Source: Escherichia coli (GTDB taxonomy: Bacteria; Pseudomonadota; Gammaproteobacteria; Enterobacterales; Enterobacteriaceae). Taken from it: a stretch of DNA of 64,000 nt. A program made the position numbers. The stretch lies in the NCBI RefSeq assembly GCF_003018115.1, contig NZ_CP027457.1; one strand, 5' to 3'. Shown one piece after another: positions 1-3,000 of this stretch (its first letter is position 1; each line of letters starts with the position of its first letter).

Positions 1-3000
1 TATTCAAAATGCGACAAATGGTAAAGATTTATCTGGTGGTGGAAATATGTTTTGTGTAGGAAATGAGGACTGTGCGGTTGTTCATAGCTGTCGTGAAATA
101 GTTAATGCTCGACACCCGGCAGGACGAGTGCGTGAACGTGTAACTCCGTTAACAACGTCAGGAACAGCAACGCTCAATGGAACAACAGTTTACTTTTATA
201 ATGATCCCCGGAATGGTAATTGTCCTGCTCACGAATATATTCCTCAATAAAGAAAGGTGGCCAGACTAAGCTCTAGCCACATTTTTTGGAGATCCTTTTC
301 ATGAAAAGGTTTTTTATAACATGTTGCGTTATGACATTATTTTTATTTGTTAAATGTAAAGCAGCGTGTGTAACTTCCTTATATGAGGTTCAGCAATCGC
401 TCTTTACATACATTTATTTGATTAGACAAGACCCTGTTCATTTTGATTCATATATTAAGAATGTGCATAACGAATTAAAAATATTCCATGATATTGATAA
501 AGCCATGAATATAGCCTCAGATATGGTCAAAATTATTGATATAAAGACCCGTTTATCATTTAATAATGATTTATATATATTACAAGGGGAGCGACAGTAT
601 GCAATAGTTAAGAGTGAAGGGGAAAGTAGTCAATTAAAATCATCAGCATTTATCATATCTAATTACCCACCATTTAAAAACAAAGTTCTGTTAATTTTAT
701 CCGCTACTAGTCCCGTTCAGTTGGTTATATTGTCTTTTGATCAATGTCTTAATGTGGAGGTGTTATTTGATTCAATGTCTCCAGTTTTCGCTAAGTATAG
801 AGAAGATATTAGTGCAACATTACCATTATGGAAGGTTATTTTGACAAAAAATGATATAGAATTATATGAGTACCATAGAACAAATCCATACTCACTTAAC
901 AAATTATTGAGCATGTCAAAATAACGGTCAAGTATTCAACGTTGTAATATTATTCCTTTTGCTGAGTGTCTCGAACGGCTAAAGTTGACGTAAAATGCCA
1001 CGTTTTGTGGGCAAACCGAATCGGTTAAAAAGCATGGTCCGGGAAAAGCTAAACATCAGCGCTATCGGTGCCAAATGTGCAGCAGGCCTTTCCAGCCTGA
1101 TTACCAGGGCAGGGCGGGATCAGGGAAAGATCATCAGAAGTTCACTTTTTGTACTAAATAATTTGCATTTTATATTTAAAAATTGAGATATTCCTCATTA
1201 CCTGAAGCTGTTTTTTATTGCTTATACATGATCAAATACTCCTTACATAATTAAGGAGAACAAAATGGAACTTAAAAAATTGATGGAACATATTTCTATT
1301 ATCCCTGATTACAGACAAGCCTGGAAAGTGGAACATAAATTATCGGATATTCTACTGTTGACTATTTGTGCCGTTATTTCTGGTGCAGAAAGCTGGGAAG
1401 ATATAGAGGATTTTGGTGAAACACATCTCGATTTTTTGAAGCAATATGGTGATTTTGAAAATGGTATTCCTGTTCACGATACCATTGCCAGAGTTGTATC
1501 CTGTATCAGTCCTGCAAAATTTCACGAGTGCTTTATTAACTGGATGCGTGACTGCCATTCTTCAGATGATAAAGACGTCATTGCAATTGATGGAAAAACG
1601 CTCCGGCACTCTTATGACAAGAGTCGCCGCAGGGGAGCGATTCATGTCATTAGTGCGTTCTCAACAATGCACAGTCTGGTCATCGGACAGATCAGGACGG
1701 ATGAGAAATCTAATGAGATTACAGCTATCCCAGAACTTCTTAACATGCTGGATATTAAAGGAAAAATCATCACAACTGATGCGATGGGTTGCCAGAAAGA
1801 TATTGCAGAGAAGATACAAAAACAGGGAGGTGATTATTTATTCGCGGTAAAAGGAAACCAGGGGCGGCTAAATAAAGCCTTTGAGGAAAAATTTCCGCTG
1901 AAAGAATTAAATAATCCAGAGAATGACAGTTACGCAATTAGTGAAAAGAGTCACGGCAGAGAAGAAATCCGTCTTCATATTGTTTGCGATGTCCCTGATG
2001 AACTTATTGATTTCACGTTTGAATGGAAAGGGCTAAAGAAATTATGCGTGGCAGTCTCCTTTCGGTCCATAATAGCAGAACAAAAGAAAGAGCCAGAAAT
2101 GACGGTCAGATATTATATCAGTTCTGTTGATTTAACCGCAGAGAAGTTCGCCACAGCAATCCGAAACCACTGGCACGTGGAGAATAAGCTGCACTGGCGT
2201 CTGGACGTGGTAATGAATGAAGACGACTGCAAAATAAGAAGAGGAAATGCAGCAGAATTATTTTCAGGGATACGGCACATCGCTATTAATATTTTGACTA
2301 ATGATAAGGTATTCAAGGCAGGGTTAAGACGTAAGATGCGAAAAGCAGCCATGGACAGAAACTATCTGGCGTCAGTCCTTGCGGGGAGCGGGCTTTCGTA
2401 ATCTTGCCCTGGGGCAACCTGCTTAATGAGGAGAACCCACATCACCTGTATCAGCCATACCGCCTGCCGGGGCAGCAGCATGATGAGGAGTCAGGGCTTT
2501 ATTATAACCGTCACCGGTACTATGACCCGCTACAGGGGAGGTATATCACCCAGGATCCAATCGGGCTAAGAGGTGAATGGAATCTGTATAAATATCCATT
2601 AAACCCTGTTCGGTTTATAGATTCTTTGGGTTTAAAATTCCATGTTAACGGTGATCCAAGTGATTTTAATCAGGCTGTTGAGTATTTAAAACAAGATTCA
2701 CGAATGAAAGAAGCTATAGATTTTTTATCAAGCTCTGAAGAAACCATAAAGATAGAGTATATTGATGAAACCGACGTTAGATTTGACCTGGATAAAATGA
2801 CTATATATTGGAATAGTAAGGCGGCTTTATTTTGTTCAACTGATTTAAAATCGAAATCACAATCACCTGCATTAGGTTTGGGGCATGAGTTTGCTCATGC
2901 GCACTTATATCTTATTGATAAGGATGGTTATATGGGGCTTGTGAGACGTGCGGATGAACAATATAAAAATAAAGAAGAGGCGAGAGTTATCACTTTAATT

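Follow-up and report, generated by a model that had tools for sequence, protein, structure and literature searches.

What joins the parts at the start of this Escherichia coli sequence, an unfinished reading frame, a small neighboring gene, a scrap of an insertion sequence (IS), and a copy of the H-rpt element, and what would the protein whose gene is cut by the first base do? The sequence is a 64,000-nucleotide stretch of contig NZ_CP027457.1 (assembly GCF_003018115.1), hereafter the window, and the parts occupy its positions 2 to 2411. An initial annotation had read the truncated open reading frame (ORF) and its neighbor, which has a hydrophobic N terminus, as a toxin/immunity module whose body lies upstream, and the scrap as an IS1-type element cut by insertion of H-rpt. 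We are fairly confident that the parts are an Rhs toxin tip, its cognate immunity gene, and IS1 and ISAs1 debris, which together form the end of the main effector module at the RhsE/vgrG locus of E. coli. This layout, from the Rhs tip through the immunity gene to H-rpt and IS debris, is standard Rhs biology and settles no open question; what is new is the toxin/immunity pair, which has neither a Pfam or NCBIfam annotation nor a relative of solved structure, and its association with both Rhs proteins and extracellular contractile injection systems (eCIS), which is unusual. A bolder reading, at a probability of roughly 0.4, is that the tip would represent an undescribed family of small, disulfide-stabilized, SleB-like peptidoglycan-cleaving toxins on type VI secretion system (T6SS) Rhs and eCIS DUF4157 routes; the Rhs-borne members would have a dedicated, equally unannotated family of secreted immunity proteins, and both families would extend from groundwater candidate phyla to enteric E. 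coli and Salmonella.

The window opens in the toxin tip of an rhs gene

Positions 2 to 250 (plus strand) hold the 3' end of an rhs gene, which by translation and by comparison with the full ORF in identical genomes comprises the last 82 codons and the TAA of a 149-residue variable C-terminal toxin tip; no stop codon interrupts the frame between the window edge and the TAA at 248 to 250. Sequence 5' of base 1 lies outside the window and was inferred from its nearest relatives, F9792 and L7_E1373. Window positions 1 to 1264 are 100% identical in five enterotoxigenic E. coli (ETEC) genomes, both serotype-labeled ones being O169:H41, and at least 80% of this interval is present in only 11 of 5426 complete E. 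coli genomes. The best 9-kb match is ETEC L7_E1373 (99.6% identity), and beyond ~1.4 kb the window is identical to none of the stored genomes compared. In the genomes identical over positions 1 to 1264, bases 2 to 250 form the 3' end of a 1037-codon ORF with seven stretches of RHS_repeat (E value, 2.4e-60) and the core-end RHS domain PF03527 (E value, 5.7e-16). The cleavage motif NNPAQFIDPTGL (DPTGL, in the pattern PxxxxDPxGL), upstream of the window, precedes the tip, the last 82 residues of which are inside it. The proposal that the truncated frame is a toxin tip with its body upstream is thus borne out by extension of the sequence, which leads into an Rhs toxin gene with RHS_repeat and RHS domains and not into a housekeeping gene.

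The annotated neighborhoods of F9792 and L7_E1373 place the locus at the RhsE site, flanked by yncH and pptA. The order is yncG, yncH, a vgrG (tssI) stump, an RHS pseudogene, a hypothetical protein, a partial "IS1 family transposase," ISEc1, more rhs fragments, a full-length Rhs, pptA, and yddH. In K-12, the RhsE site reads rhsE-ydcD-yncI-ydcC and combines a GC-rich core, an AT-rich tip, a downstream ORF, and H-rpt. Shared with classical E. coli RhsE elements are the chromosomal site (yncG-yncH to pptA-yddH), the RHS repeats and RHS domain, the DPxGL boundary, the AT-rich tip, the small downstream ORF, and the trailing ISAs1-family H-rpt copies. The G+C content falls from ~62% in the Rhs core to ~44% in the tip and ~29% in the companion gene, which is the classical pattern, recognized long ago, of Rhs loci, in which a conserved core is followed by a tip and a partner gene of foreign origin. 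Unlike the classical elements, the locus carries a tip/immunity allele rare enough to occur in only those 11 of 5426 complete genomes, its immunity gene is separated from H-rpt by what is left of an IS1-family element and by a 16-bp stub of a second ISAs1 element, and, in contrast to the K-12 rhsE structure, its rhs gene is truncated by a vgrG-rhs deletion.

The tip has relatives on Rhs and eCIS carriers

The tip has no match in Pfam, NCBIfam, or the PDB sequences. A word-indexed homologue search returned just six relatives of the tip and four of the companion, whereas an exhaustive HMMER search of 1.84e9 proteins with a three-sequence profile gave 83 representatives of the tip family; in all 83, the domain lies at or near the C terminus, in proteins of widely varying length. 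The family has no match in PHROGs, and none of its 64 aligned members has one in Pfam. Among 66 members scanned for carrier domains, eCIS_core (DUF4157) is found in 16, RHS repeats in at least 10, and PAAR in none, and one member consists of eCIS_core, PG_binding_1, and the tip domain, in that order. Residues G9 and E10 (the YGE motif), S34, W65, D76, and four cysteines are near invariant in the 64-sequence alignment, and the conserved cysteines suggest a protein made for an oxidizing compartment.

The defining behavior of polymorphic toxin domains is that a C-terminal domain is swapped between delivery scaffolds. Because the tip domain is distributed in this way, we read it, on the strength of these alignments, as a member of an unannotated, cysteine-rich polymorphic toxin-domain family borne on RHS shells and on eCIS core/DUF4157 cargos. 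One metagenomic eCIS-type locus (3001 to 7388) contains three consecutive eCIS_core (DUF4157) cargo genes, the first of which carries the tip domain. No companion-like gene is evident among the called genes around this toxin gene, although these neighbors were not compared with the companion family; eCIS-borne copies may need no immunity protein.

The companion is predicted to be a secreted immunity protein

The gene that follows the rhs stop codon (positions 301 to 924, plus strand) would encode a Sec-exported cognate immunity protein of 207 residues. It had been described as a 212-residue companion, the product of a mechanical ORF at 286 to 924 with a TTG start; that ORF exists and its homologues lie beside toxins, as expected of a cognate immunity gene, but its length is better given as 207 residues from the ATG at 301. 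This start is the most likely one, because a GGAG lies 8 nucleotides 5' of it and the Salmonella homologues (68 to 71% identity) begin at the same position, with a matching MK-hydrophobic N terminus. The start chosen by the Prokaryotic Genome Annotation Pipeline (PGAP), the ATG at 331 (197 residues, WP_223718882.1), removes half of the signal-peptide-like N terminus. Residues 1 to ~22 (MKRFFITCCVMTLFLFVKCKA) comprise an MKR basic stretch, ~15 hydrophobic residues, and then C-K-A, and this segment looks like a Sec signal peptide; all companion homologues compared have a hydrophobic N terminus, and the pattern is conserved in kind. The companion has no match in Pfam, NCBIfam, or the PDB, and a repeat of the homologue search with a wider companion alignment returned nothing beyond the input sequences.

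Toxin and companion occur side by side well outside E. coli. Their Salmonella homologues have the neighboring locus tags N2F65_003625 and N2F65_003624, and in three metagenome contigs and a Candidatus Desantisbacteria metagenome-assembled genome, a protein of 212 to 251 residues is encoded directly after a distant toxin homologue. These downstream proteins have in common the motifs TRL-F, F(V/I)T-P, (I/V)L-(I/V)-S-(S/A)-x-(S/G)-P, and (Y/F)DS, and the enterobacterial companions align with the four of them in hhalign at a probability of 96.7% (E value, 3.7e-10; 147 columns). In the three E. coli lineages compared, the tip does not vary, and in the companion a single residue sets one lineage apart from the other two. 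Because it is co-inherited with the toxin across such distances, we assign the companion with high confidence as the cognate immunity protein, which would be exported by its signal peptide and neutralize the toxin in the periplasm of carrier cells.

The eCIS carriers bring in a different reading, in which the domain mainly targets eukaryotic cells, like many eCIS cargos, and the secreted downstream protein is an accessory factor instead of an immunity protein. The presence of the eCIS core (DUF4157) on 16 of 66 family representatives fits this idea, as does the one eCIS locus in which no companion-like gene was seen among the flanking called genes, these not having been compared with the companion family. 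We nevertheless consider it improbable. A homologous secreted companion stands directly downstream in every Rhs-borne member compared (the four distant loci and the Salmonella pair), in distant phyla, and a conserved downstream companion is what one expects of a toxin dangerous to the cell that makes it. Furthermore, E. coli lineages with a beheaded toxin gene still have an undamaged companion, as described below. We therefore keep the companion as an immunity protein; its conservation, including in the lineage with the beheaded toxin, fits selection for immunity alone.

A possible SleB-like fold and a candidate catalytic glutamate

An AlphaFold2 model of the tip, built from the 64-sequence alignment (pLDDT, 92; pTM, 0.87), consists of three helices followed by a small sheet, with E10 located in helix 1 (predicted helix, residues 2 to 14). 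In two structure searches with this model, a SleB lytic transglycosylase ranked first, neither time significantly; the top Foldseek match in the PDB was SleB 4F55 (E value, 2.3, not significant). SleB-type cell wall hydrolases made up 4 of the top 17 Foldseek matches in BFVD, none of them significant. Two motifs of the tip family have parallels in SleB: YGE(I/V)R resembles Y-G-E-S-R-G-E (general form, Y-x-E-(A/S)-R-G-E), and G-x-D-x-S-G-G-G resembles D-P-T-x-G-A.

A published effector, validated by experiment, offers a precedent. T6EC3 of Acinetobacter rudis is a PAAR effector without sequence-based annotation, the best structural match of which is also SleB 4F55 (PMC11148199). Its toxicity is exerted in the periplasm, replacement of a Glu by Gln inactivates it, and its partner, T6IC3, is an immunity protein with a signal peptide (PMC11148199, Mol Syst Biol 2024). 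Compared by published description, the present pair resembles T6EC3/T6IC3 in having an unannotated C-terminal toxin domain with SleB 4F55 as its best structural match, a candidate catalytic Glu near the start of that domain, and an immunity protein predicted to be periplasmic. Unlike T6EC3, the tip family is carried by Rhs or eCIS-core proteins, with PAAR on 0 of 66 members scanned. One family member, P0014, was considered as T6EC3 itself, as the Glu of its YGE motif falls at residue 108, like E108 of T6EC3; it was rejected, being an Rhs fragment and not a PAAR protein. A tip-family scan of species-representative genomes with a three-sequence alignment found a single locus and none in Acinetobacter, a result that the strict patterns used make nondecisive.

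In the mechanism that we propose, the tip would act in the periplasm of the target cell as an enzyme with a SleB-like lytic transglycosylase fold that cleaves the glycan strands of peptidoglycan, with the near-invariant Glu of YGE (helix 1) as its catalytic acid, and two predicted disulfides would stabilize the domain outside the cytoplasm. Four points give this proposal a supporting context: in the relative fused to PG_binding_1 the domains follow the order seen in SleB, the conserved cysteines point to a life in an oxidizing compartment, the partner protein is predicted to be exported, and T6EC3 sets a published precedent. On this model-based evidence, a SleB-like lytic transglycosylase is the best-supported mechanism, at about even odds, and it is not an established family membership. 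The tip family also departs from the SleB/CwlJ hydrolases (Hydrolase_2, PF07486; structures 4F55 and 4FET) and the phage endolysins in that it has no hidden Markov model match to them and its structural scores are below threshold, that it has four conserved cysteines and another C-terminal sheet than SleB/CwlJ, and that it is a delivered toxin with an immunity partner.

Several points weigh against our overall reading. In hhalign, the tip family aligns only weakly with an 11-sequence alignment of SleB and phage endolysins (Hydrolase_2), at a probability of 11% (P = 0.0026), and this alignment leaves the YGE motif unpaired with the catalytic Glu of SleB; the match to SleB alone is also weak. 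None of the tip-family members scanned matches Pfam Hydrolase_2 or any other Pfam family. E10 is only a candidate for equivalence with the SleB catalytic Glu in three dimensions. The AlphaFold model of the companion is poor (pLDDT, 58) and unfit for a fold search, its putative signal peptide was judged by eye, and the eCIS-borne relatives may target eukaryotes rather than bacteria. Finally, the structure upstream of the window is taken from the nearest genomes, the best of which is only 99.6% identical over 9 kb.

The same low scores leave room for a toxin that acts in the periplasm on something other than the glycan strands, such as lipid II, another lipid-linked precursor, or the membrane, its likeness to SleB being no more than a shared alpha-plus-beta topology. 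Structural scores under the usual significance thresholds, the 11% hhalign probability, and the missing Hydrolase_2 match are what such a toxin would give, and yet we regard it as the less likely reading. SleB-type proteins are first or enriched among the top matches in three separate structure libraries, one family member has PG_binding_1 directly before the tip domain, as in SleB, E10 and D76 are near invariant, and the domain has no hydrophobic segments suggestive of pore formation. Cleavage of peptidoglycan by a SleB-like enzyme is the mechanism that we prefer.

In the nearest genomes, a deletion beheads the rhs gene and spares the immunity gene

TB06051 provides an intact counterpart of the module, with a complete vgrG (2109 nucleotides) and a 4227-nucleotide rhs gene, the tip of which is 100% identical in amino acids to that of the window lineage. 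Four E. coli genomes outside the group of the window have an intact vgrG-rhs arrangement with the identical tip. Compared with TB06051, the nearest relatives of the window show a gap of 2571 bp that runs from vgrG nucleotide ~711 to rhs nucleotide ~1107, and the two halves are out of frame. At the junction there is ~7 bp of imperfect microhomology (CGGCTGG/CGGGTGG), located at 9100 to 9170 in the F9792 locus and at 4005/6577 in the reverse complement of the comparison locus L007. DUF6531 is found in the intact allele only; the beheaded fragment lacks the N-terminal quarter, with the DUF6531/PAAR-like region. The window lineage has thereby lost the N-terminal delivery region and the full vgrG, of which a VgrG stump of 252 residues (Phage_GPD) remains. 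A 2.57-kb deletion would thus have fused what remained of vgrG to the rhs core in the wrong frame, at the cost of DUF6531 and the PAAR-like end at the Rhs N terminus, and without this region the toxin should no longer be loadable onto the T6SS spike. In 2014C-3075, the rhs gene is beheaded differently, by an ISEc1 copy.

Judged from these sequences, the Rhs gene of the nearest genomes is a pseudogene, and the module appears to be a nondeliverable toxin with an intact immunity gene, which would still protect the cell against kin that carry the intact allele. The uninterrupted 1037-codon frame, however, retains an in-frame GTG at the deletion junction, and its tip is 100% conserved, so that the beheaded fragment might still be made from this internal start and serve as an intracellular or otherwise released toxin, the module not being defunct at all. 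We give this very little chance: the fragment is without the DUF6531/PAAR-like N terminus of the intact allele, its frame does not match that of the vgrG stump, and PGAP labels it a pseudogene. We continue to read the module as one that has kept its immunity and lost its means of delivery.

A GC-rich, terminator-like hairpin flanked by T/A runs (positions 257 to 280) separates the rhs stop codon from the companion gene. The hairpin scan flagged it on the minus strand, with nine pairs; on the plus strand, an imperfect stem is followed by ATTTTTT. This hairpin may partly uncouple expression of the immunity gene from that of rhs.

A dead IS1-family copy follows the immunity gene

Seven base pairs after the companion stop codon begins a 173-bp IS1-family remnant (positions 932 to 1104, plus strand), which corresponds to bp 1 to 8 and 21 to 184 of a 777-bp relative. 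The frame with a zinc-ribbon pattern had been proposed to be of the IS1 type, and transposase homology is found in both protein and DNA: after repair of the frameshift, the peptide matches the IS1/IS1595 Zn domain NF050000 of NCBIfam at 31 bits (cutoff, 28), and positions 941 to 1104 are 92.7% identical over 164 bp to the left end of the intact 777-bp element on pOkiPb01675_1. The fragment placed at about 990 to 1120 is therefore real, but its limits move to 932 and 1104 in the alignment to that element. The score against the Pfam InsA ribbon PF03811 is 20.9 bits, under the cutoff of 26.1, and PGAP labels positions 966 to 1116 "IS1 family transposase, frameshifted, partial."

Four defects mark the copy. 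A single C at 940 replaces 12 bp of the left inverted repeat, the insA start codon is changed from ATG to ACG (975 to 977), an extra A at 1000 causes a +1 frameshift that splits the first zinc knuckle (C-P-F-C), which is why the zinc motif is seen spread over two frames, and the remnant stops at 1104, bp 184 of the intact element, with no insB. With its left repeat damaged, its start codon lost, and its frame shifted, the copy is, as far as its sequence tells, dead. The intact relative is bounded by 17-bp inverted repeats (GTATTCAAAGTGTTGAT) and encodes its transposase in an insAB' gene that uses a programmed frameshift; its InsA retains the ribbon C-P-x-C ... H-Q-R-Y-x-C-x2-C. It resembles IS1A-type IS1 in the N-terminal C-x2-C...C-x2-C zinc ribbon, the size of ~777 bp, the terminal inverted repeats, and the programmed-frameshift transposase; unlike these features, the nucleotide sequence of the 777-bp element has no similarity to IS1A. 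The remnant matches in blastn the start of the "IS1 family transposase" element on two E. coli plasmids, and a partial copy lies in an O157:H16 prophage region. The element is rare: it is found on three E. coli plasmids, two of them in PLSDB (at 100%) and the third in RefSeq, and Klebsiella and Pantoea plasmids carry relatives that are ~82% identical to it.

An intact IS1-family transposase gene also lies at the far end of the TB06051 Rhs locus, beside pptA (10277 to 10974). It has no blastn similarity to the IS1-family element of the window, which means that the Rhs locus has received IS1 elements of two different lineages.

Stacked ISAs1-family elements probably explain the junction with H-rpt

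ISEc1, the first H-rpt copy of the window (ISAs1 family, 1291 bp), occupies positions 1121 to 2411 on the plus strand, with its transposase ORF at 1265 to 2401. Its limits were fixed by aligning the three H-rpt copies in the window; the left end is CAGGGAAAGAT and the right end, in reverse complement, is CAGGGCAAGAT, with 10 of 11 positions matching between the termini. The transposase contains the Pfam domains DDE_Tnp_1_assoc and DDE_Tnp_1, and PGAP names it ISEc1. Because the right end abuts an rhs-core 3' fragment that begins at W-G-N codons, ISEc1 joins unrelated segments, and no target duplication is present. A longer left end for H-rpt, prompted by BLAST matches starting from 1099 in thousands of genomes, was rejected, as the matches reflect a fortuitous resemblance to a partly duplicated ISEc1 terminus at other loci.

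Between the IS1 remnant and ISEc1 lie 16 bp (positions 1105 to 1120, plus strand), CAGGGCAGGGCGGGAT, which the junction in 2014C-3075 identifies as the left terminus of a second ISAs1-family element distinct from ISEc1. That genome has the same IS1 breakpoint and the same 16 bp, and there they run on into a 264-bp piece of the other ISAs1-like element, comprising a 120-bp leader and the N terminus of an H-rpt-like transposase; this piece is cut by an ISEc26-like element, which is itself cut by ISEc1. The 2014C-3075 locus thus displays three ISAs1-family left ends in the same orientation between 7105 and 8098 (the unnamed element at 7105 to 7368, the ISEc26-like one at 7369 to 7954, and ISEc1 from 7955), each truncating the previous one and all starting with CAGGG. 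This one-sided stacking suggests that ISAs1-family elements prefer inserting into, or deleting toward, one another. In TB06051 and three similar genomes, the IS1 remnant stops at 1071, directly against the ISEc1 end. Because the same IS1 defects are common to all three lineages, all descend from one insertion.

Was the IS1-type element cut by the adjoining H-rpt copy itself? The two elements are just 16 bp apart, and in TB06051 the IS1 remnant does abut the left end of ISEc1. A direct cut by ISEc1 is nonetheless very unlikely: positions 1105 to 1120 are the first 16 bp of a different ISAs1-like element, of which 264 bp survive in 2014C-3075 from the same breakpoint, the shared IS1 defects indicate a single insertion, and the ISEc1 junctions differ among the lineages (at 1120, at 1071, and inside the ISEc26-like element), as fits later deletions anchored on ISEc1. 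The suggestion that H-rpt interrupted the IS1 element consequently holds for an H-rpt-like element of the ISAs1 family and fails for H-rpt 1; the accompanying idea of nested IS events is confirmed, the nesting being deeper than proposed, as the stack in 2014C-3075 attests. The element that made the cut was probably reduced to 16 bp by a deletion anchored on the left end of ISEc1.

The simplest history that we infer from these junctions has three steps. An IS1-family element would have landed 7 bp after the immunity stop codon and decayed; ISAs1-type elements would then have stacked, one of them cutting the IS1-family element at its bp 184; and deletions of different lengths would have followed, each anchored on the intact left end of ISEc1.

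Neighboring features

Compared with F9792, the window has scattered differences inside H-rpt 1 (1417 to 2331) and more further on; differently homogenized H-rpt copies are one of two readings of these differences. Right after H-rpt 1, an orphan rhs-core 3' fragment (2404 to 3575) ends in a tip with the HExxH-like motif GHEFAHAH and is followed by a 150-residue ORF with a hydrophobic N terminus. This tip and ORF may be another toxin/immunity pair, perhaps with a metallopeptidase as the toxin. No RNA family of Rfam was found in positions 1 to 3000.

Implications for Rhs and eCIS toxins

The value of these findings is modest. An unannotated toxin/immunity pair gains a testable mechanism, the proposed cleavage of the cell wall in the periplasm with Glu10 as the catalytic residue, and the presence of one domain on both Rhs and eCIS carriers illustrates the exchange of toxin modules between injection machines. 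At a single site, three E. coli lineages keep successive stages of IS stacking and deletion, and the ETEC lineage of the window offers a clear case of toxin loss with retention of immunity.

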